A DNA stretch of 32,000 nt from Xanthomonas campestris pv. campestris str. ATCC 33913 (GTDB lineage Bacteria; Pseudomonadota; Gammaproteobacteria; Xanthomonadales; Xanthomonadaceae), in contig NC_003902.1 of the NCBI RefSeq assembly GCF_000007145.1, positions 2,996,497 through 3,028,496 of the forward strand, written 5' to 3'. The notes under the pieces were generated by a model, which was not told the DNA's origin, did no database searches, and saw only the letters and a program-made list of their open reading frames with translations. Below are positions 6,844 through 26,402 of this stretch, one piece after another; within the stretch, counting starts at the first letter, position 1; each line of letters starts with the position of its first letter. A program made the position numbers and the translations under genes.

Positions 6844-6928
6844 TGGTGCCCAAGAGGGGACTCGAACCCCTACGACCTAAGTCGCTACCACCTCAAGGTA
6901 GTGCGTCTACCAATTCCGCCACCTGGGC
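6844..6928 (-). tRNA. leuU: tRNA-Leu, anticodon GAG (class II, long variable arm), CCA encoded
   Basis: Minus-strand read: GCCCAGGTGGCGGAATTGGTAGACGCACTACCTTGAGGTGGTAGCGACTTAGGTCGTAGGGGTTCGAGTCCCCTCTTGGGCACCA. 7-bp acceptor stem with one G-U. Anticodon stem CTACC/GGTAG with loop TTGAGGT. T-arm GGGG-TTCGAGT-CCCC. Directly downstream of secG, as in the E. coli secG-leuU operon. Confidence 0.95.
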
Positions 6929-9183: not shown

Positions 9184-9270
9184 GTAAGCGACACTGCAAC
9201 TGACAGGCCACATCTCGCGTCGCTCGCGACCGGGAACATGGCAAACAACGCGATGGACAGGGGAAAATCA

Positions 9271-10647
9271 ATGACGACAAGATTCATAATGCGCCATCAA
9301 GCGGAGCTCATTGCGCTCTTCATTGCATCATCGGCTTTCTTTGCAATCCAGCTTGCCATCGATGCCAAGGCATTTACCGGAGATGCCGGAGCCTACTGGG
9401 CCTTGAGCTCAGCAATTACTGAAGGGACCTTCCCCAAGACGATTCGCGGATATTCCTACCCACTTCTACTGACACCATTTAGATTCGCTTTTGACCATTC
9501 AGAGCAGGCTGGATTGTTATTACTCAAGCTCGGGCAATCGATAGGATACGGCTACTTGTTTTCGATCCTCCTTCCGAACCTTTATCAGGTCATATTTGAC
9601 GCCAAACCGTCGGCATTCACCAGACTCATCCCTGCACTCCTGATGGCCTTTGCATTTCCCGGATTGATATCTTACCCGCTCAGCGACGCACCTTCTTTTG
9701 GGATAATGGCGCTAGCCTTATATGCTTGCATCAAGGCCATCAAATCACAGTCCTTCAGTCTTTTGATCGTAGCAGGGCTACTTGCCTATTTAGCCTACAA
9801 CACACGAACCATCTATTTATTTTCCTTCTTTACACTCATGGTCATTGCTGCGATTTTTTTCTCAAAAAGCCTTAAGCAAAGATTTTTTGCATCGACATGC
9901 TTTCTACTAGGCGCACTAGTAGGCGCAGCCCCCCAAATGGCAATTAATTACAGCCACCACTCAACGCGCACCCCACTCGTAGTGACGGATGTCCGCGGCG
10001 CATCCCTATTTGCGCGGCAGCTGGCATGGGGAATGATCGTTGACAAATATGAAACACATATTGACCCCCAGACCAAAAAAGCCATACCCGTATTCTATGC
10101 AAACAACAATGGCGCACTCATCCTCCAACAAAATGGAGGCTTTGAGAACAATCAATCAGTCGTAAAAATAGCTGGCCTGATGACCCAGCATCCAATTACA
10201 TTTATAAATATATATCTCCGTCACATTGCGTTAGCTCTCGATGTGAGGGATGGAGAGGTCTACACTCGGAACCCTACGTCAGAAAAAAATATTCAGTCGC
10301 TGATTTTACTTAGCATCGTCTTATTTGGGCTGACCCAACTTGGCCGAGCAATCTTCTTTCAGGCCTCTAGTGAGCCGGTAAATCGCAGACTTCTTTACAC
10401 GCTCGTGCTCCTGGCGCCTTGCATAGCCATCATTCCCGGCGCCATTGAAACTCGCTTCTTCTTGCCAATTCATTGCCTTTCCTACTGTGCCCTTGCGTTT
10501 GGTGGAATAAAAAAGGAAGCCATCGCAATGCAGCTAGCGTGCACAGCAATCTTGACAGCAGCGATCTTCACGTTTGCCGCAAAGTCGGCAGACAGCCCAA
10601 TCCACTCCCGACCCGAGTCTTACATCCCCACCCCATCGAATATATGA
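9271..10647 (+). CDS. Polytopic inner-membrane protein with GT-C glycosyltransferase-like or Wzy-like topology; function unknown; compositionally foreign (low GC)
   Basis: Start chosen at ATG 9271 (MTTRFIMRH...), preceded by AGGGGAAAATCA. About 12 hydrophobic segments, with a ~125-aa hydrophilic loop after roughly the 8th. The first periplasmic loop, DAKAFTGDAGAYWALSSAI, resembles the acidic/aromatic first-loop motif of GT-C enzymes. A/T-ending codons, unlike all neighbours. Family call is tentative. Confidence 0.75.
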   Translation: MTTRFIMRHQAELIALFIASSAFFAIQLAIDAKAFTGDAGAYWALSSAITEGTFPKTIRGYSYPLLLTPFRFAFDHSEQAGLLLLKLGQSIGYGYLFSILLPNLYQVIFDAKPSAFTRLIPALLMAFAFPGLISYPLSDAPSFGIMALALYACIKAIKSQSFSLLIVAGLLAYLAYNTRTIYLFSFFTLMVIAAIFFSKSLKQRFFASTCFLLGALVGAAPQMAINYSHHSTRTPLVVTDVRGASLFARQLAWGMIVDKYETHIDPQTKKAIPVFYANNNGALILQQNGGFENNQSVVKIAGLMTQHPITFINIYLRHIALALDVRDGEVYTRNPTSEKNIQSLILLSIVLFGLTQLGRAIFFQASSEPVNRRLLYTLVLLAPCIAIIPGAIETRFFLPIHCLSYCALAFGGIKKEAIAMQLACTAILTAAIFTFAAKSADSPIHSRPESYIPTPSNI

Positions 10648-10722: not shown

Positions 10723-11148
10723 TCAGTGATTGACGATCTCGCCATGCATCGCGGCCAACCGTGCGAGCAGGCGATTCTGGGTTCGGCGCGGAATGTTGCG
10801 CTGATCCATTGCCCAGTTGAGATCTTCGACCAGGGCATTGAAGTCGTCCTCGCGGATGGCCATATGCTGGTGCGCCTGTGCCATGGACTTGGCAGTGTCC
10901 GGGCACGGGCCATCGGCGACATGGCAGAACTTCTGCACCAGCCGCTCGTTGAGCATGACGATATTGACGCGTGCAAAGTGCTCGACGATGCGCGGGTCGT
11001 CGGCGATGCGCGAGAGCATGGTTTCCACCAGGGCCTCGATGCCGGGCTGACCGCCCAATTCTTCGTACAGCGTCTGTCGCGGTTGCGTGGTGGCACAGGC
11101 GCTCAACGTCAGCACGCACAGCAGCGAATAGCGCAGCCATCGGGTCAT
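10723..11148 (-). CDS. Group-1 truncated haemoglobin (trHbN-like) with lipoprotein signal peptide
   Basis: Start at MTRWLRYSLLCVLTLSAC (ATG 11148; lipobox L-S-A-C). Globin core: LYEELGGQPGIEALVETMLSRIADDPRIVEHF ... DGPCPDTAKSMAQAHQHMAIREDDF. By hand this aligns with M. tuberculosis HbN ([22 protein letters not shown] ... [25 protein letters not shown]), including the proximal His. 141 aa. TGATG overlap with the upstream gene. Confidence 0.8.
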   Translation of the reverse strand: MTRWLRYSLLCVLTLSACATTQPRQTLYEELGGQPGIEALVETMLSRIADDPRIVEHFARVNIVMLNERLVQKFCHVADGPCPDTAKSMAQAHQHMAIREDDFNALVEDLNWAMDQRNIPRRTQNRLLARLAAMHGEIVNH

Positions 11149-12023
11149 CACAACGCCACCTGCAGGGAAAGATACGGTCCGCGCTGACGCTTCAAGGTGG
11201 CAACTTCGCCGAGATCGGCCCAGGCGGCGGTCAGCGACACATGCTTGGTCGGGAACCAGGCGACGAAGCCGTCGGCCCAGGCTTGCTCGCGGGCGAAACC
11301 CAGATTGTTCGGCTTGTCGCGATACTCCAGGCCCACCACCCACGACGGGCTCAGCACCACGCCAGCGCTGACCTCACCGACCAGCCGATAACTGTTGCGA
11401 CGGTCGCCGCCGAAGCCCAGCAACCCGGTTTGATTGGCGCGAGTAGCGCGCACGGTGCCGTTGAGCAGCAACTGGTAGCCGCCAGCGCCTTGCAGCAATA
11501 GCCGCGCGGCGCTGAGATAGACATCGGTGCCGTGGTCGTCGCGTGCACCGATCGCCAGCGGCAAGGTGCCGTCGCGCAGGCGCTTGTACTGCACGCCCAG
11601 ACTCAGCTGCGGCGCGCGCCCGTAGACCAGATCGCCATGCAGTCGCACTTTCGCGCCAAACACATCCTGGCCGAGCGCATTCCACGGCAATCCCAACCGG
11701 TCCTGCAAGGTGCCCAGGTCCAGACGCTGGCGCGCCACCGAAAGCTCGAGCCGATTGCCCACCGTCAATGCCGCGCCCTGCACATCCAGACGGTAATCGC
11801 CGCTATCGACGTGGGTGGCGAACGCCACGGTGCCGAGTTCATCGCGCGTGCCGTACCCCGACAACGTGGCCCAGGGCACGATGCCGCCGCCACTGCTGCC
11901 TTCGAGCATCGAGACGCCGCCGGTGGCCAGCAACCGGCCCTCGCCCGCCATGCACAGCAGTGGGTTCAGCGCCGTTGCGGCAAGCAGCATTGCGGCCGCT
12001 GTCGTACGTGGAACGCGCTTCAT
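11148..12023 (-). CDS. Exported DUF3034-like protein, probable outer-membrane beta-barrel
   Basis: Start at MKRVPRTTAAAMLLAATALNPLLCMA (ATG 12023; ATGA overlap with the GGDEF/EAL stop). 291 aa. Alternating hydrophobic/polar beta-strand pattern throughout (YRLDVQGAALTVGNRLELSVARQ, GYQLLLNGTVRATRAN, VSLTAAWADLG). The GGGIVPWATLSGYG motif recalls the DUF3034 family, from memory and not searched. Confidence 0.7.
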   Translation of the reverse strand: MKRVPRTTAAAMLLAATALNPLLCMAGEGRLLATGGVSMLEGSSGGGIVPWATLSGYGTRDELGTVAFATHVDSGDYRLDVQGAALTVGNRLELSVARQRLDLGTLQDRLGLPWNALGQDVFGAKVRLHGDLVYGRAPQLSLGVQYKRLRDGTLPLAIGARDDHGTDVYLSAARLLLQGAGGYQLLLNGTVRATRANQTGLLGFGGDRRNSYRLVGEVSAGVVLSPSWVVGLEYRDKPNNLGFAREQAWADGFVAWFPTKHVSLTAAWADLGEVATLKRQRGPYLSLQVAL

Positions 12024-14383
12024 CGTTGACCTCCCGCCTGCGCCACGGGCGAGCGACCGAGCTGGCGCATGCACCATGCCAGCAGCGGCTTTTCTTCCAG
12101 TGGCGGCGAATACAGATAGCCCTGCACCATGTCGCAGCCGTAGCCGCGCAGCAGCGCCAGCGCAGTGTCGTTTTCCACGCCCTCGGCAATCACGCTCAGG
12201 CCGAGGTTGTGCCCCAGATCGATCGTGCTGCGCACGATGAAGGCATCGTCGGTGCCTTCGGCAAGCTGCATGACAAAGCTCTTGTCGATCTTCAATTCGT
12301 TCACCGGCATGCGCTTGAGCTGGGCCAGCGAGGAATAGCCGGTGCCGAAGTCGTCGACCGACAGCCGTACGCCCACATTGCGGAGTTGATGCAACATGTG
12401 CAGCGCAAATTCGACATCGCGCATCAATGCGCTTTCGGTCAGTTCCAGCGTGACCGAGGTGGCCGGCACCGCATGACGCTGCAGGCAGCCGCGCACGAAG
12501 TCCGGCAGGCCGGGGTCGGACAGATCCAGGGCCGACAGATTGATCGCCATGCCCAGTTCCAATCCTTGCGCTCGCCATTGCGACTGGCAGTGCAAGGCCT
12601 CGTCCAGCACGAAGCGGGTGAGCGGATGGATGACGCCGGAATGCTCGGCCAACGGAATGAATTCGTCCGGGCCGATCGGCCCCAGCACCGGGTGATGCCA
12701 GCGCACGAGCACCTCGACCTGCTCCACCTGATCGGTACGCAGGCTGATCTTGGGCTGGAAACGCAAGGTCAGCTCGTTGCCACCGATGGCCTGGCGCAGA
12801 TCGCCGGTGAGACGCAGCCGGCGCAGATGCTGCTCGTCCTGGCCAAGCCGGTACACGCTGGCGCCACTGGCGGTGTCGCCGACCTGGCCGCGCGCGATAT
12901 CGGCGCGACGCAGCAGCGTGTCCGGGTCGGCGCCATGTTCGGGAATCAACGCAATGCCGATGCTGGCTTCGAGCTGGATGCGCGCCTGCGGCAGCGCCAG
13001 CGGGCTGCGCAATTGCAGCAGCAGGCGTTGGGCTTCCTCCTGCACGGTGGCCGGGTCGGCATGCGCCACCACCACCATGAATTCGTCGCTGCCAAGGCGC
13101 CCGACGATGTTGGGCGCCTGCACCACGTCGGCAAGCCTGCGCCCGGCTTCGACCAAGACCTGATCTGCGAAGTCGTGGCCCAGGCTGTCGTTGAGTTCCT
13201 TGAAGCGCTCCAGGTCCAGGATCAACACCGCTGCGGTGCCGCCCGAGGCCACGGTCTGATCCACCACCTGCTGCAGCTGCTCCAGCAGCCAGATGCGGTT
13301 GGGCAAGCCAGTGAGTGCGTCGTGGCGTGCCTGGTGCAGGATGTGCTGCTCGCGCGTGGCGATCTGCTGCTGCATGCGCCCGAAGCTGTCGGCCAGCTCC
13401 GCCAATTCGCGCCCGGGCGGCAATTGCACGGTGGTGTGGTAATCACCGCGCTGGATGCGGCGTGCTGCCTGCACCAGCAGCGCCACCGGCTTACTGACGC
13501 TGCGCGCGAGAAAAATCGACACGCCCAGTGCGGCGGCGGTGGCCAGGCCAGCCAGCAGCAAAATCCGTAACTTGAGTGTGCGGTACGGCGCCACCGCGCG
13601 GTCCAACGACGCCTGCAAGGCAACCCGCACGCGGGTATCGCCCTGGATGGACTGCAACTTCACCAGGTAACGCGAGTCCCCCAGGGTCAGCGGGATTGCA
13701 GCGCCCTGCGCGTGTTCGGCGGTGCGCAATTGCTGCGCGAATTCCGTGCGTTCGGCTGGTTGCAGCGTGGACGCCAGTACGCGCGGCGGCGCACCGTCGA
13801 TGAAGAAGGTGGCATCCAGACCCGTGGTGCTGCGGAAATCCTGCGCAAGGCTGTCGCCGGATTCATTACCGATCGCAATCCAGCCCACCCGGCTCGGCGC
13901 CAGTACCTGCACGACTGCCAGGCGCACGATGTGTTGATCCAAGGCCACCACACCGACGGCACGCCCGTCGTGCTGGGCCTGTTGCAGCAAGGCCTGCACG
14001 GCACGCAGCTGCTCGGCCTGCGGCAGATCCGCCAGCCCGGTCAGAAAATCGCCTTCAGGCGACAGCAGCACCGCCGTCTGCGCATCCATGCGCGCGGCGT
14101 GGTTGCGCAACGCCGACTGCATCGTTGGCACATCGCCGCTGGCAACGGCTGCACGGAAGCCGAAATCGTCCGCCAGCACCGAGGCCGATTGCAGCAGTTG
14201 TTCATCGCGGCGCTGGTTGATGCGTTGCCAGACCCGCTCGCCAATCAGCAGCTCTTCGCCGAGTTGCGCCTTGACGCTGCGCTCGGTGGCCACCTGCACG
14301 GCAATGAAGGTCAGCGCCTGGGTGCCGAGCACCACCAGCACCAGCAGCGCCGCGATGCGCGTATGCAGTCGCATCGCCTTCAT
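12020..14383 (-). CDS. Membrane c-di-GMP signalling protein: TM - ~240-aa periplasmic sensor domain - TM - HAMP - degenerate GGDEF - EAL
   Basis: 787-aa ORF. TM1 is IAALLVLVVLGTQALTFIAV and TM2 is ILLLAGLATAAALGVSIFLA, followed by a HAMP-like segment. GGDEF domain (DALTGLPNR ... RLGSDEFMVVV) has GSDEF in place of GG[DE]EF and no RxxD I-site. The EAL domain has a full catalytic set: QPK, EVLVRW, INLS, ELTES, DDFGTGYSSL, KIDKSF, EGVE, QGY. Confidence 0.9.
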   Translation of the reverse strand: MKAMRLHTRIAALLVLVVLGTQALTFIAVQVATERSVKAQLGEELLIGERVWQRINQRRDEQLLQSASVLADDFGFRAAVASGDVPTMQSALRNHAARMDAQTAVLLSPEGDFLTGLADLPQAEQLRAVQALLQQAQHDGRAVGVVALDQHIVRLAVVQVLAPSRVGWIAIGNESGDSLAQDFRSTTGLDATFFIDGAPPRVLASTLQPAERTEFAQQLRTAEHAQGAAIPLTLGDSRYLVKLQSIQGDTRVRVALQASLDRAVAPYRTLKLRILLLAGLATAAALGVSIFLARSVSKPVALLVQAARRIQRGDYHTTVQLPPGRELAELADSFGRMQQQIATREQHILHQARHDALTGLPNRIWLLEQLQQVVDQTVASGGTAAVLILDLERFKELNDSLGHDFADQVLVEAGRRLADVVQAPNIVGRLGSDEFMVVVAHADPATVQEEAQRLLLQLRSPLALPQARIQLEASIGIALIPEHGADPDTLLRRADIARGQVGDTASGASVYRLGQDEQHLRRLRLTGDLRQAIGGNELTLRFQPKISLRTDQVEQVEVLVRWHHPVLGPIGPDEFIPLAEHSGVIHPLTRFVLDEALHCQSQWRAQGLELGMAINLSALDLSDPGLPDFVRGCLQRHAVPATSVTLELTESALMRDVEFALHMLHQLRNVGVRLSVDDFGTGYSSLAQLKRMPVNELKIDKSFVMQLAEGTDDAFIVRSTIDLGHNLGLSVIAEGVENDTALALLRGYGCDMVQGYLYSPPLEEKPLLAWCMRQLGRSPVAQAGGQR

Positions 14384-15078
14384 GGAGACGGCTTTTTCGG
14401 GTCGGCGGCGCGACGGAACTTGTCCTGCAGCGCGCGCACGCGATCATCCGGCGGCGCGACCGCTGGCGCTGTGCCGGTGGTCTGCACGGTGACACGGCGC
14501 TGCAGCGCATCGCGGCTCAGCACCAGTGGCTCGGACAGCGCAGCGCCCTTGATGCGCGGATGCCAGACGCGCAGGGTGTAGCTGCCCGCGGGCGCATCGA
14601 TCTGGACACGGCCATCGCTGCCGCTCTTGCCGAAATACGGGGTGTCCAGCACCACGATATACCCCAGCATCCAGTCATGGATGTTGCAGCCCACCGTCAC
14701 CAGCCCGGCCTGATCGAAGCGTACCGGCGCAGCCGTGCTGCCCTGGAACAGCGGCAACTCGAACTTCTTGGCAGGCGAAAACGAATACACCTGATGCCGG
14801 ATTTGATCATTGTTTGGGAAGCGCACCAGGCTACCCGTGCGTACCGCGAGCACCGCGGGAACGAACTGCGAATTCAGCTGATCCATCGACACCGTTTTCG
14901 AGGTGCCGGTCGCCGGCACCGGACGTGCGGTTTCCAGGCTCACCACTGCATCAACCAGCACGCCGCCGGCGTCCTGGACAGTCACCGTCACCGGTGTTGC
15001 CAAGGCCACACCCGCAAGGCACCCGGTCAGCACCAGTGCCGATGTTCCAACAATGTTGATTACTTTTCGCGTCCACAT
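14380..15078 (-). CDS. Exported cupredoxin-fold (type-1 blue copper, amicyanin-like) protein with beta-sandwich flanks; a family often labelled 'methylamine utilization protein'
   Basis: Start at MWTRKVINIVGTSALVLTGC (ATG 15078; alternative ATG 15093). Signal peptide with a possible lipobox L-T-G-C. Candidate copper ligands: His in NDQIRHQVYSF, then GCNIHDWM (Cys-X2-His-X2-Met). ATGA overlap with the downstream GGDEF/EAL gene. 232 aa. Confidence 0.75.
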   Translation of the reverse strand: MWTRKVINIVGTSALVLTGCLAGVALATPVTVTVQDAGGVLVDAVVSLETARPVPATGTSKTVSMDQLNSQFVPAVLAVRTGSLVRFPNNDQIRHQVYSFSPAKKFELPLFQGSTAAPVRFDQAGLVTVGCNIHDWMLGYIVVLDTPYFGKSGSDGRVQIDAPAGSYTLRVWHPRIKGAALSEPLVLSRDALQRRVTVQTTGTAPAVAPPDDRVRALQDKFRRAADPKKPSP

Positions 15079-15273
15079 GCGCCCGCACCTCATCGCAGTC
15101 CTGCAGCGGGCGCCAGGCAAATCCGACGTCGCGCTAGCGGCCAGACTGGGATATCGGCAGAGGTGAACGCAAGCTTTAACCGGACGCGAGCGAACGTTCA
15201 TCAAGCAAACTGTGGCGAGCGTCATCCGCCATGTTGCGAGCGCGGCCATAGGCTGCGCTTGGGTCCGTTCGGC

Positions 15274-16212
15274 TTACTTGAGCTTGATCTCGCGCAGGCG
15301 CTCTTCCAGAAACCCGTGTGCGGTGATCGGCTCGGGATAGCGGCTGGGGTTGTCGGCGCTGATGCAGGACGGCAACACGTCGATCAGGAAATCCGGGTTC
15401 GGGTGCAGGAAGAACGGCACCGAATAGCGCGGCTTGCGCGCTTCCTCTCCCGGCGGATTGACCACGCGGTGGATGGTGGACGGGTACACATGGTTAGTCA
15501 GGCGCTGCAGCATGTCGCCGATATTGACCACGATGGTGTCGGCGTCCGCAGTGAACGGCACCCACTCGCCTTCGTTGGAACGCACTTCCAGGCCGGCGGC
15601 ACTGGCGCCCACCAGCAAGGTGATGAAATTGATGTCGCCGTGCGCACCGGCGCGTACATTCGGGATGTCGTCGCTGGTGATCGGCGGGTAATGGATCGGG
15701 CGCAGGATCGAATTGCCGTGATCGGTCTTGTCGGCGAAGTAGTCCTGCGGCAGGCCGATGTGCAGCGCCAGCGCCGACAACACGCGCGAGCCCAGCTGAT
15801 CCAACTGCTGATACAGGTGGTAGCCACGTTCGCGGAAGCCCGGCACTTCGGTCGGCCACAGATTGGGCGCCATCACCGCGCGGTACGGCGAATCGTCCGG
15901 GATCTCGCGGCCGATGTGCCAGAACTCTTTCAAATCGAAATGCTTGGAGTCCTTGGCGGTTTCCACACCGAACGCGGTATAGCCGCGCGCGCCGCCACTG
16001 CCGGGCACGTGGTAGCTGCGCTTGACCTCGTCGGGCAGCGCGAAAAATGCCTTGAACACCTCGTAGGCGGCGTCGATGTCGGACTGCGCAATGCCGTGAT
16101 TGCGGATACCGGCAAAGCCCCATTGCCGATAAGCGGCACCGAGCTCGGCGACAAAGGCCTCGCGGTCGCTGTCGAAACGGGTGATGTCCAGGGTGGGGAT
16201 GCGCGCGCTCAT
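15274..16212 (-). CDS. 2-oxoglutarate/Fe(II)-dependent oxygenase (isopenicillin-N-synthase-like family)
   Basis: 312-aa ORF. N-terminal non-haem dioxygenase region (IPTLDITRF...GFAGIRNHGI). Facial triad H-x-D...H (GAHGDINFITLL ... STIHRV). 2OG-binding R-x-S (RYSVPFF). Confidence 0.88.
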   Translation of the reverse strand: MSARIPTLDITRFDSDREAFVAELGAAYRQWGFAGIRNHGIAQSDIDAAYEVFKAFFALPDEVKRSYHVPGSGGARGYTAFGVETAKDSKHFDLKEFWHIGREIPDDSPYRAVMAPNLWPTEVPGFRERGYHLYQQLDQLGSRVLSALALHIGLPQDYFADKTDHGNSILRPIHYPPITSDDIPNVRAGAHGDINFITLLVGASAAGLEVRSNEGEWVPFTADADTIVVNIGDMLQRLTNHVYPSTIHRVVNPPGEEARKPRYSVPFFLHPNPDFLIDVLPSCISADNPSRYPEPITAHGFLEERLREIKLK

Positions 16213-24426: not shown

Positions 24427-26402
24427 GCCAGACGGTCGAGCAGGTCGGCCGCTTCGGCACGGGTCGCCGCATCGCCGGTGGCGGCGACTTCCAGCAACAG
24501 CCCGCGTGCAGTGTCCTTGTCGCCCAAGTCCATGTAGGCCACCGCCAGCTCGAGACGGTCGCGGCCGGCCGAGGCGAATTCGCGCGGCGCAGCAGCACTG
24601 AACGTCTCGGCATGCGGCGCGTCGTCAACCGGCACCGGCGCCGGCGGGGCTGGGTCGAAGTTCAAGCTGTCCTGCTGCGTGGCTGGTGAAGGCGGTGCGT
24701 GTGCGGCAGTCATTGGCGCTGGTACGGGTTCGGGTGCTGGCTCAGCTGCCGGGGCAGGTCTGGCGTCGGCCAGATCGACGGACGGCGCGGCAGGCGTCGC
24801 GCGCAAGGCGCGCCAATCGTCACTGGACACCACCGGGGCAGCTGCGTGCGGCACCGGCTCGGCCAGCTGCGGTTCGCGCCGCAGCACGTCCGACAGCGGC
24901 GGCTGCGTGCCACCGGCGCGTTCGTCTTCGTGCAGATCAATTTGCTCGAACTCGGTCTCCTGCACCACGTCGCGCTCGCTGGGCACGGTGGCGGCGGCGT
25001 CCGCATCCGGCTGGGCCGCAGCAGCTGCAGTGCCGGGCGGAATGAAATCGAAATTGCGGCGCGGCAACGGCGGCAACGGCGATGGCTTGCGGCGGCGCGC
25101 GGCCAGCCAGGCCACCACCGCGGCCACGATCAACACCAGCCCGCCGATCAACCACAGCGGGAATCCGCCGCCCTGCGCGGGCGTGGCCGGGGTCTCGGCC
25201 AGGCGCCGCTGGGCGGCGGCCAGGTCGGTGTCCTTCATGGCGATCAACGCCTGTTGCTGCTGCTTGAGCTTTTCCAGGTCGGCCACGCGGGTGCGCAGCT
25301 CCTGCAGCTCGGCATCGCGGGTGGCGATGTCTTCCTTGGCCTGTTGCAACTGTTCGTTGGCCGCCATCTCGCCCTCGCCTTCGCCACTGGTGCCGGACGT
25401 GGTGCCGGCCTTGTTGGTATCCGTCGCCACCGCGGGGGCGATCTCAAGCCGCGCGCCACCGGCGGCGCCTGCAGCGGCAGCGGCCGCCGGCGCGGGGCTG
25501 GCGGCCGGAGTGGTGCCCGCCTCGGCCGGTTGCGGCATGGGCGCACGCGCCTGCCGCCACTGCGTGGCCTGTTCGCGCACCAGCGCCGCGGCCTCGGCGG
25601 CGCCCACTTCGGCCAGCGCGTCCTGCTGCGGCGTGCGCAACACCGCGCCCTGCTTGAGCCGGTTGATGTTGCCGTTGATGAAGGCATCGGGATTGGTGCG
25701 CAACAACGCCAGCATGGTCTGGTCCAGCGAATGCCCGCTGGAACGCGCCACCCCGGCAGCGATCTCCGACAAGGTCTGGCCCGGGCGCACGGCCGGCAGC
25801 TGGTCGCCCGCTGCGCTGGCCGATGGCGCCGGCGCAGCGGCAGCAGGCCGTGCGGCCGGCCTTTCCACTGCGCTGTCCTGGCGACTTGGTCGCGCGCCGG
25901 AAGCCGCGGCCGGTTCGCGCGCAATGGTGTTGCTGGCACCGGCTTGCGGCGCCTCGATGCCTGGCTCGGCAATCGCCGCTGCGGTATTGGGCGCATCGAC
26001 CAGCGCCGAATACTCGCGCACCAGGCGGCCCTGGTCCCACTCCACTTCGATCAGGAAGTTGATGGCCGGCTGATCGACCGCCTGCGTGCTGGTCACGCGA
26101 ATCACCGCGCGGCCGCGGGCGTCCTGCGCAAACTGGAACTGCAGGTTGCTGACCAAGCCTTGCGGCCGCTCCAGGCCGACCCGCGCAAAAATGGTTGGCG
26201 ATGCCAGCGCCACGCGCGCGTTGTCCAGTTCGCCAGGCTCGTTGGAGATGATCGGGATCTCGGCCACCAACGGCTGCCCGGGTTTGGACAACACCCGGAT
26301 ATCGCCCAACCCCAACGCCATGGCCGCACCACTGCATAACGCCAGCAGCAGCACGCCCACCCCTTGTATCGGGCGCATCGCGCCCCGGCCCCTATGTTTC
26401 AT
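24423..26402 (-). CDS. fimV: FimV-like type IV pilus assembly / peptidoglycan-binding protein
   Basis: Signal peptide MKHRGRGAMRPIQGVGVLLLALCSGAAMA. Start candidates are 26408, 26402 and 26378. LysM-like segment (VRPGQTLSEIAAGV...INRLKQGAVLRTP). Coiled-coil (EQLQQAKEDIATRDAELQELRTRVADLEKLKQQQQ). Single TM (FPLWLIGGLVLIVAAVVAWLAARRR). Acidic Pro/Ala-rich cytoplasmic part. C-terminal FimV TPR-like motif (LELAVAYMDLGDKDTARGLLLEV). Synteny asd-fimV-truA-trpF as in Pseudomonas. Confidence 0.9.
   Translation of the reverse strand: MKHRGRGAMRPIQGVGVLLLALCSGAAMALGLGDIRVLSKPGQPLVAEIPIISNEPGELDNARVALASPTIFARVGLERPQGLVSNLQFQFAQDARGRAVIRVTSTQAVDQPAINFLIEVEWDQGRLVREYSALVDAPNTAAAIAEPGIEAPQAGASNTIAREPAAASGARPSRQDSAVERPAARPAAAAPAPSASAAGDQLPAVRPGQTLSEIAAGVARSSGHSLDQTMLALLRTNPDAFINGNINRLKQGAVLRTPQQDALAEVGAAEAAALVREQATQWRQARAPMPQPAEAGTTPAASPAPAAAAAAGAAGGARLEIAPAVATDTNKAGTTSGTSGEGEGEMAANEQLQQAKEDIATRDAELQELRTRVADLEKLKQQQQALIAMKDTDLAAAQRRLAETPATPAQGGGFPLWLIGGLVLIVAAVVAWLAARRRKPSPLPPLPRRNFDFIPPGTAAAAAQPDADAAATVPSERDVVQETEFEQIDLHEDERAGGTQPPLSDVLRREPQLAEPVPHAAAPVVSSDDWRALRATPAAPSVDLADARPAPAAEPAPEPVPAPMTAAHAPPSPATQQDSLNFDPAPPAPVPVDDAPHAETFSAAAPREFASAGRDRLELAVAYMDLGDKDTARGLLLEVAATGDAATRAEAADLLDRLA

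Follow-up and report, generated by a model that had tools for sequence, protein, structure and literature searches.

Why should the genes of a predicted copper protein, a haem protein and an outer-membrane barrel overlap with that of an enzyme of cyclic di-guanosine monophosphate (c-di-GMP) turnover? The question is raised by four genes of Xanthomonas campestris pv. campestris str. ATCC 33913. They lie on the minus strand of a stretch of 32,000 nt (NC_003902.1, positions 2,996,497 to 3,028,496), in the following referred to as the window, and follow each other head to tail in the order g1-g2-g3-g4 according to the list of open reading frames (ORFs). g1 encodes a candidate exported cupredoxin, g2 an inner-membrane receptor with GGDEF and EAL domains, g3 a DUF3034 protein and g4 a predicted exported truncated haemoglobin. 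A first-pass annotation of the sequence had proposed that these genes feed a periplasmic signal into c-di-GMP signalling. We favour the reading that all four form one envelope-spanning sensory input device controlling c-di-GMP breakdown, with a probability of roughly 0.4. Any particular stimulus, be it redox state, O2, NO or copper, is less probable than this overall picture. Transmembrane receptors controlled by an accessory protein are already known; new is the accessory set of a copper protein, a haem protein and a barrel. The cluster looks like an undescribed envelope sensing device.

The conservation of the neighbourhood was analysed in a DUF3034 scan using a 12-sequence alignment and one genome per species. 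It resulted in 80 loci; the four window proteins were then used as queries against the six-frame ORFs of each. The loci derive from Xanthomonas, Pseudoxanthomonas, Arenimonas, Thermomonas, Dyella, Rhodanobacter, Pseudomonas (many), Stutzerimonas, Halopseudomonas, Marinobacter and Granulosicoccus. Two further loci are found in assemblies labelled Acidobacteria (a metagenome-assembled genome, MAG) and Janthinobacterium, labels which may be mis-assigned. The globin gene directly adjoins the DUF3034 gene in 80/80 loci. Moreover, 72 of them have g1 and g2 directly upstream of g3-g4, with gene order and strand unchanged; these belong to Lysobacterales, Pseudomonas, Stutzerimonas, Halopseudomonas and Marinobacter. 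The remaining eight consist of two loci cut by contig ends and six with g3 and g4 only (Dokdonella-like, Granulosicoccus and one Pseudomonas MAG). Lysobacterales show glmM and a 2-oxoglutarate (2OG) oxygenase gene on one side of the cluster and tpiA, secG and nuo on the other, Pseudomonas genes for a Lon-like protease, an AraC regulator and methyltransferases. A fifth conserved gene was sought by clustering the flanks of the 80 loci, which returned only lineage-specific syntenic neighbours (the Lon-like protease, AraC regulator and methyltransferase genes, a pyrroloquinoline quinone dehydrogenase and an SSF symporter). Since the flanks differ between orders and no fifth gene recurs in them, the cluster travels as a unit.

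Rearranged forms of the cluster are found as well. In Sphingomonas, an Alphaproteobacterium, the four genes are arranged as two divergent pairs, g2<-g1 and g3->g4. Metagenomic contigs exhibit g4-g1-g2 opposite g3, g4 before g3, g3 opposite g4-g1-g2, and g1-g2-g4 without the barrel. The last is a three-gene variant with a lipoprotein globin and no DUF3034 gene (L180:3728-7294). A Lysobacterales-like metagenome carries g1 and g2 only, at the syntenic site. The cluster hence consists of two sub-modules, g1+g2 and g3+g4, each of which is also found alone. Linkage that survives rearrangement is strong evidence of a shared function. Confinement to one lineage, which the first-pass annotation had named as a possible objection, can be dismissed given the 72/80 loci in several genera, the differing contexts and the rearranged forms.

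Additional signalling genes are present at some loci. Five loci of the P. fluorescens group (L062, L063, L070, L073 and L079) carry a second, paralogous GGDEF-EAL receptor gene just upstream of the cluster (E ~1e-134 to g2), and four others (L026, L030, L053 and L039) another GGDEF/EAL gene just downstream. One metagenomic contig encodes a distant DUF3034 protein with no recognisable globin gene adjoining (L097:6063-7421); its neighbours look fragmented, with a fumarase in pieces, so that assembly or frameshift errors are possible.

Sequence matches of g1 are weak (amicyanin NCBIfam model, E 0.005; PDB cupredoxins, E 0.02-1). The AlphaFold2 (AF2) model, built with 36 homologues as input, has a predicted local distance difference test (pLDDT) value of 88.6. 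Its best Foldseek matches in the PDB are pseudoazurin, amicyanin and plastocyanin with target-normalised TM-scores of 0.55-0.76, and the model displays the Greek-key beta-sandwich of the cupredoxin fold. The type-1 copper ligands H95, C131, H134 and M137 (C-x2-H-x2-M) align with the copper ligands of PDB cupredoxins. They are kept in 74-75 of 75 orthologues and in 113/113 metagenomic homologues, the latter collected with a search pattern that excluded H95 and M137. Sequence and model together support g1 as a cupredoxin with a complete predicted type-1 copper site. Around the core there is an additional beta-sandwich, which gives a weak CarboxypepD_reg-like signal, and a helix follows at the C-terminus. 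With ordinary signal peptides ending in AxA among its orthologues, g1 is most plausibly soluble in the periplasm.

Two other classifications of g1 were considered and rejected. The first-pass annotation had assigned export or membrane signals to all four products. This stands, as such signals are kept among the orthologues of all three non-membrane proteins (g1, g3 and g4) and g2 possesses two transmembrane segments (TMs). It does not hold for the possible lipobox of g1: the LTGC of the window protein is not conserved, and the orthologues have the ordinary signal peptides mentioned above. The name 'methylamine utilization protein' at NCBI (JGI uses 'plastocyanin') would suggest MauL, but it is an annotators' label only, and no mau genes are present in the window or in those related loci whose gene content was listed or scanned with Pfam. 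The start of g1 varies in public annotations, giving 209, 232 or 281 aa (window 14380-15249, minus strand). The 209-aa version deletes the signal peptide present in all orthologues. The 232-aa version (start at 15078) agrees with the orthologues and has a Shine-Dalgarno (SD)-like GAGG ~10 nt 5' of its ATG. In an unrelated metagenomic locus (L144) a g1-type cupredoxin gene is found beside those of a PKHD-type 2OG-Fe(II) hydroxylase, a TonB-dependent receptor, a histidine kinase and a BBP2-like barrel, which hints at a second, iron-uptake-like context for such cupredoxins.

The receptor g2 is organised as TM - periplasmic dCache_3 - TM - HAMP - GGDEF - EAL (Pfam: EAL 1e-68, GGDEF 2e-37, HAMP 4e-12, dCache_3 9e-11). 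Hydropathy analysis places its hydrophobic segments at residues 10-28 and 274-292, enclosing ~240 residues; g1 and likewise g3 have a single N-terminal hydrophobic segment. The dCache_3 match (PF14827, 42.2 bits vs a cut-off of 25.7) covers residues 53-243 between both TMs. Sensor-domain residues kept in at least 90% of the orthologues include a DFGF motif, T87, S90, N94, R98 and A162-P163, and zero Cys, His or Met are among the residues conserved to this degree. A PDB sequence search with the periplasmic domain returned no solved relative. On the cytoplasmic side, twelve EAL residues (E557, L559, R561, N615, E647, E650, D677, D678, K698, E734, E737 and Q754) are invariant in 72/72 orthologues. 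The GSDEF motif of g2 deviates from the GG(D/E)EF of active diguanylate cyclases. Across the 72 orthologues the motif positions read G/I/V/L, G/A/S/T, D, E and F, and the Sphingomonas orthologues exhibit a canonical GGDEF. With an intact EAL and a degenerate GGDEF domain the predicted output is therefore c-di-GMP hydrolysis, in line with the phosphodiesterase activity presumed at first pass.

Two further candidates for g2 were rejected. A haem sensor of the globin-coupled or H-NOX type does not apply, as Pfam finds no globin, PAS-haem or H-NOX domain in g2 and the globin is a separate, exported protein. Neither is g2 a LapD-type receptor, given a catalytically intact EAL, a periplasmic domain of the dCache_3 family and a partial NCBIfam LapD match (E 8e-40) that scores 137 bits vs a cut-off of 1020.

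g3 is a full-length match to Pfam DUF3034 (PF11231, 370 bits, E 7e-111), a small family of 820 representatives at 50% identity. The AF2 model (pLDDT 92) displays 12 long strands. Foldseek matches are outer-membrane barrels only, namely FapF, the COG4313 channel, NanC, and beta-domains of autotransporters and invasins; the query-normalised TM-scores of ~0.45-0.5 point to a generic likeness to 12-strand barrels. Signal peptides are present in the orthologues, and the C-terminal residue is Phe or Tyr in 73/83 of them and Leu in the window protein. A 12-strand outer-membrane beta-barrel is supported by these sequence features and the model. The mature N-terminus of the orthologues is Gly-rich and strikingly conserved (GRLLATGGxxxxEGxAGGGxxPWA). 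It might serve as barrel plug or as contact to a partner.

The fourth protein matches Pfam Bac_globin (E 9e-13, 48.8 bits vs a cut-off of 21). Its best PDB sequence matches are HbN of Mycobacterium tuberculosis (1idr) and other group-1 truncated haemoglobins (E ~1e-9 to 5e-10). His F8 (H93) is kept in 83/83 orthologues, Phe CD1 (F58) in 80/83, the Gly hinge positions G32 and G80 in 82/83 and 83/83, respectively, and a Cys-x6-Cys pair (C75, C82) in 82/83. The distal positions were mapped via the HbN alignment. B10 is Leu, Ile or Val; Leu prevails at E7 and E11, besides a few Phe, Val, Ile or Met, and also at G8. Tyr B10 and Gln E11 of HbN are hence replaced in every family member examined, and a polar distal site is absent. 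The same pattern is found in 19 metagenomic homologues and in Sphingomonas. Based on these residues, g4 defines a distinct subfamily of exported truncated haemoglobins with an apolar distal pocket.

Localisation of g4 can be predicted to some extent. The lipobox Cys is present in 81/83 orthologues and the remaining two have an ordinary signal peptide; the Sphingomonas protein likewise has a non-lipoprotein signal peptide. Because a twin-arginine motif is lacking, export is probably by Sec, and the haem would be acquired in the periplasm afterwards. According to the sorting rule of E. coli, absence of Asp after the lipobox Cys suggests outer-membrane anchoring. This residue is never Asp in the g4 family, and most likely g4 is anchored to the outer membrane, at its inner face. 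As for the two Cys of the pair, they probably form a structural disulfide, which would suit a periplasmic protein; a redox switch is a further possibility. Taken together, profile, structure and residue evidence bears out the families named in the first-pass annotation for all four proteins (cupredoxin, HAMP-GGDEF-EAL, DUF3034 and Bac_globin).

The association of cupredoxin and sensor domain extends beyond the DUF3034 loci. Metagenomes were scanned with the cupredoxin motif VYSFS - 28 residues - GCNIHD, which samples the g1 family without bias towards the query. All of the 120 loci obtained contain a g1 homologue, and in 88 a receptor with a g2-type periplasmic domain is adjoining: directly downstream on the same strand in 62, divergent in 18 and otherwise adjacent in 8. 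Flanks are too short for a judgement in 14 loci. The full-length receptors include 29 GGDEF-EAL proteins, and among other outputs 5 adenylate/guanylate cyclases (dCache_3-HAMP-Guanylate_cyc), 1 hybrid histidine kinase (dCache_3-HAMP-PAS-HisKA-HATPase-REC) and 1 methyl-accepting chemotaxis protein (MCP). The periplasmic domains of the receptors with other outputs align end to end with that of g2, with L45, D73, T87, S90, R98 and P163 invariant. Two of these loci also contain g3 and g4 (L168 with a cyclase, L195 with the MCP). Such a constant pair of partner and sensor domain, joined to exchangeable outputs, is a classic hallmark of cognate input modules. Since the same pair is found on several outputs, the tie to c-di-GMP is one wiring among several. 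The periplasmic input postulated at first pass is in part backed by protein families, export, phosphodiesterase output and linkage, but its link to c-di-GMP is not intrinsic, as other outputs are used elsewhere.

How might such a device work? The cupredoxin would be the cognate periplasmic partner of the dCache_3 domain, as PruR, YfiR, TorT or LuxP are for their receptors. The receptor would read the state of the cupredoxin, most plausibly Cu(I) vs Cu(II), and HAMP would transmit it to the EAL domain such that c-di-GMP hydrolysis goes up or down. Barrel and haemoglobin would act as an outer-membrane pair setting the cupredoxin state via electron exchange between haem and copper, with the haem reporting a redox-active or gaseous stimulus. 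The apolar distal pocket of g4 lets one expect weak O2 binding and would still allow binding of NO or CO. A weak hold on O2 without Tyr B10 and Gln E11 would suit sensing of micromolar O2, or a preference for NO or CO. In other bacteria the same input device is wired to cyclase, histidine-kinase and chemoreceptor outputs.

This reading is favoured by the linkage of the four genes across lineages, contexts and rearrangements, by the recurrence of the cupredoxin-sensor pair on other outputs, by the kept export signals and by the predicted phosphodiesterase output. Moreover, the predicted cofactor sites are under selection, with copper ligands, His F8, Phe CD1 and the Cys pair conserved to ~100%. 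The absence of conserved Cys, His or Met from the sensor domain fits sensing via a partner.

Several points weigh against it. The contacts among the four proteins are something we infer. g1+g2 occur without g3+g4 in the Lysobacterales-like metagenome, and g3+g4 alone in the Dokdonella-like, Granulosicoccus and Pseudomonas MAG loci. In the metagenomic scan g3 or g4 is present in only 7 of 22 cupredoxin loci with enough flank; thus the barrel-globin pair is an optional add-on to a wider cupredoxin-sensor core. That core has exceptions of its own. By single-sequence phmmer, 18 cupredoxin loci whose flank reaches 1 kb or more show no receptor, and some receptor-less cupredoxins adjoin other genes, for instance those of a TonB-dependent receptor, a PKHD hydroxylase and a BBP2-like barrel. 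Type-1 copper usually has a higher potential (~+250 to +370 mV) than globin haem. Electrons would therefore tend to pass from haem to copper, and the cupredoxin would be a poor reductant for the globin. Furthermore, a globin exported unfolded by Sec would have to gain its b-type haem in the periplasm. Finally, a 12-strand barrel has no obvious role for gases that permeate the membrane.

The same evidence can be arranged differently. In a more specific version of the device, which we regard as doubtful, the cluster would be a trans-envelope 'redox wire' serving signalling and not respiration, leading from the barrel and the tethered b-type haemoglobin to a diffusible blue-copper protein, whose oxidation state the Cache receptor would read. 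Redox information would then originate at the cell surface or in the outer periplasm, and the outputs would be c-di-GMP, cyclic-nucleotide, two-component and chemotaxis signalling. Alternatively, two independent units may merely share an operon: a cupredoxin-receptor sensor, and a barrel-globin pair with a separate envelope job, for instance periplasmic NO or peroxide detoxification or haem handling, that is co-expressed without feeding the signal. Each pair does occur without the other, barrel or globin are infrequent in the cupredoxin loci (the 7/22 given above), and the Sphingomonas pairs are separate divergent transcription units. Seen from the DUF3034 side, however, the association is near obligate, with 72/80 loci complete and two of the other eight cut by contig ends. 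It moreover holds in different proteobacterial classes, for different gene orders and with different types of receptor output. At several loci it is g1-g2, and not the barrel gene, with which the globin gene is transcribed, and the three-gene variant L180 keeps the globin gene without any barrel. Two independent units are unlikely in our view.

Further alternatives concern what the receptor perceives. Cache domains usually bind small ligands, and a pocket for one could be formed by the membrane-distal half of the sensor domain, which is strongly conserved. The dCache_3 domain might thus sense a small molecule directly, with the barrel importing a substrate that cupredoxin and haem protein convert to or from the ligand; a dedicated small barrel indeed suggests solute passage. 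Yet, apart from the two redox proteins, an enzyme-like domain is absent, the conserved neighbours include no candidate genes for a substrate, and the cupredoxin-sensor pair is common without the barrel, which makes direct sensing quite improbable. A sensor of copper status, in which the receptor tells holo from apo cupredoxin and so reports periplasmic copper with the haem pair as accessory, would agree with the complete, invariant type-1 site, with the lack of metal ligands in the sensor domain and with the exposure of plant-pathogenic Xanthomonas and Pseudomonas to agricultural copper. It appears distinctly improbable all the same: type-1 sites classically serve electron transfer and not copper trafficking, no conserved cop or cus genes are nearby as only the four genes recur, and the conserved haem protein and barrel are left unexplained. 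The signal might also run from inside to outside as in LapD, such that c-di-GMP binding to g2 makes the periplasmic domain capture or release the cupredoxin and thereby controls an envelope redox process. The layout is alike (two TMs, periplasmic domain, HAMP, degenerate GGDEF, EAL) and the partial NCBIfam LapD match points in this direction. The EAL catalytic residues, however, are complete in all orthologues, unlike those of the degenerate LapD, and cyclases, a kinase and an MCP bearing the same sensor domain are outputs and not c-di-GMP receptors. We consider this last idea highly improbable.

The coordinates of the operon are summarised in Table 1. Overlaps of stop and start codons are frequent in operons and alone mean little. 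The three overlaps reported at first pass are all present in the minus-strand sequence at the same coordinates, and the peptides quoted there agree with the window ORFs. SD-like sequences are also found 5' of the start codons of g3 (GGGAGG) and g4 (AGGTGG). In the related loci, for which start codons were picked heuristically, the three junctions are an overlap or a gap of at most 20 nt in 67/72, 67/73 and 75/80 cases (~90%). Identical copies of all four proteins exist in many X. campestris genomes, where g1 is annotated as 'methylamine utilization protein', g2 as 'EAL domain-containing protein / bifunctional diguanylate cyclase/phosphodiesterase', g3 as 'DUF3034 family protein' and g4 as 'group 1 truncated hemoglobin'.

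Table 1. Features of the four-gene cluster and its upstream region (positions within the 32,000-nt window).
Feature	Position	Strand	Description
g1	14380-15078	minus	232 aa; predicted exported cupredoxin
g2	12020-14383	minus	787 aa; predicted inner-membrane GGDEF-EAL receptor
g3	11148-12023	minus	291 aa; DUF3034, predicted outer-membrane barrel
g4	10723-11148	minus	141 aa; predicted exported lipid-anchored group-1 truncated haemoglobin
g1 stop/g2 start	14380-14383	minus	ATGA overlap, read in the sequence
g2 stop/g3 start	12020-12023	minus	ATGA overlap, read in the sequence
g3 stop/g4 start	11146-11150	minus	TGATG overlap, read in the sequence
g2 periplasmic sensor domain	13577-14290	minus	residues 32-269; dCache_3 match
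g2 GGDEF domain	12890-13330	minus	motif GSDEF at 13079-13093; without RxxD I-site
g2 EAL domain	12101-12802	minus	motif EVL at 12707-12715; full catalytic set
g4 lipobox LSAC	11095-11097 (Cys18)	minus	signal-peptide end
g4 proximal His93	10870-10872	minus	His F8
Non-coding leader	15079-15273	minus	between the upstream 2OG-Fe(II) oxygenase gene and g1; likely promoter region
2OG-Fe(II) oxygenase gene	15274-16212	minus	DIOX_N + 2OG-FeII_Oxy; directly upstream of the operon

A sigma-70-like promoter scan of the leader was negative. A terminator-like hairpin is located at 15231-15213, 3' of the oxygenase stop codon, but such sites are at least as frequent in shuffled sequence. The Rfam search in and around the operon resulted in zero matches; hence there is no riboswitch. 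The oxygenase neighbour is syntenic in Lysobacterales and not in Pseudomonas.

Some further features of the window do not belong to the operon. Downstream of the globin gene, window 9238-10647 (plus strand) encodes a 469-aa protein with multiple TMs and no Pfam match, at ~52% GC vs ~65% in the rest of the window. The region that separates the globin gene from a short-chain dehydrogenase/reductase (SDR) gene varies among X. campestris genomes, which exhibit proteins of 361, 436 or 469 aa, fragments, or an insertion sequence (IS) element (DDE_Tnp_1). It looks like a variable, horizontally acquired insertion spot. The sole Rfam match in the window is a tRNA gene at 6847-6928 (minus strand). The most extreme composition is found at 25001-26000, with a GC peak of 0.729 and an AT skew of -0.159.

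No published account of the exact cluster turned up, in agreement with the first-pass annotation, which knew of no characterised system of this architecture. The full-text literature search, covering few subscription journals, returned no paper on the cluster, on DUF3034 function or on an exported lipoprotein truncated haemoglobin. A paper on HbN of Shewanella benthica leaves signal peptide, lipoprotein, periplasm, operon, gene cluster and diguanylate all unmentioned. A genomics paper on Fe oxidisers mentions truncated haemoglobins and GGDEF domains, each separately. The g2 gene is probably part of systematic GGDEF/EAL knockout panels in X. campestris.

For most c-di-GMP enzymes of Xanthomonas and Pseudomonas the input signal is not known. 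The module offers a concrete, testable c-di-GMP input in tractable organisms, namely X. campestris pv. campestris and the P. fluorescens, P. syringae and P. stutzeri groups. If the proposed device is real, it would provide a first function for DUF3034 and for 'methylamine utilization protein' cupredoxins outside methylotrophy clusters, and cupredoxins would become known as partners in signalling. Should the redox wire apply, it would moreover be the first signalling role of a cupredoxin and the first function of an exported truncated haemoglobin. With its predicted apolar haem pocket, the exported globin subfamily does not follow the textbook arrangement with Tyr B10. As one input is shared by four output types, its elucidation would at once account for sensing by many receptors.

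The device can be compared with several known systems, of which PruR-DcpA follows the closest characterised logic. PruR of A. tumefaciens is an exported, pterin-binding protein with a sulfite-oxidase-like fold, and its gene is located just upstream of that of DcpA in the same operon (PMC11194511). It binds the periplasmic domain of DcpA, a two-TM GGDEF-EAL enzyme, and thereby favours phosphodiesterase activity; conservation of the operon extends across Proteobacteria, its output varying to some degree (PMC11194511). g1 and g2 follow the same plan, in which the gene of a small cofactor-binding protein destined for export directly precedes that of a GGDEF-EAL enzyme with two TMs. The pterin-binding PruR and the cupredoxin g1 are, however, unrelated proteins. 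Moreover, the periplasmic domain of DcpA is described as a four-helix bundle of ~140 aa (PMC11194511), in contrast to ~240 aa of dCache_3 type in g2, and neither an outer-membrane barrel nor a haem protein belongs to the PruR-DcpA system. The overall arrangement across the envelope also resembles YfiBNR (TpbB) of P. aeruginosa, where one operon encodes an outer-membrane lipoprotein, a redox-sensitive periplasmic protein and an inner-membrane HAMP-containing c-di-GMP enzyme. Based on Pfam the components are non-homologous to g1-g4. YfiN is a cyclase and not a phosphodiesterase, and the system has no metal cofactors and no beta-barrel.

With respect to haem, g4 recalls the haem-based c-di-GMP sensors (H-NOX partners, NosP, DosP/DosC and globin-coupled sensors), in which a haem protein is tied genetically or physically to GGDEF/EAL enzymes. 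To our knowledge all of these are cytoplasmic. Their haem domain is fused to or bound by the enzyme, whereas g4 is predicted to be exported and lipid-anchored, is a truncated (2-on-2) globin and is accompanied by a cupredoxin and a barrel. Among H-NOX proteins, those that exclude O2 have an apolar distal pocket, which favours NO over O2. HbN of M. tuberculosis shares the proximal His, Phe CD1 and the Gly hinge motifs with g4; the g4 family differs by aliphatic residues at B10 and E11, the extra Cys-x6-Cys pair and an export or lipoprotein signal.

As regards copper, amicyanin and pseudoazurin resemble g1 in the cupredoxin fold, and the spacing of the His / Cys-x2-His-x2-Met loop is that of the PDB-matched cupredoxin. 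In contrast to these and to MauL-type proteins, g1 has an extra beta-sandwich and a C-terminal helix and is paired with a signalling receptor, not with an enzyme. From MauL itself it is set apart by gene context, as no methylamine dehydrogenase genes are nearby. The route from the outer membrane to a cupredoxin finds a possible analogue in Cyc2-rusticyanin of Acidithiobacillus, where electrons reach a cupredoxin of the periplasm from a barrel in the outer membrane that is associated with a single haem. Cyc2, however, is a fused c-type cytochrome-porin that feeds a respiratory chain, whereas g4 would be a separate b-type globin, the predicted barrel of g3 has only 12 strands, and the putative endpoint is a signalling receptor.

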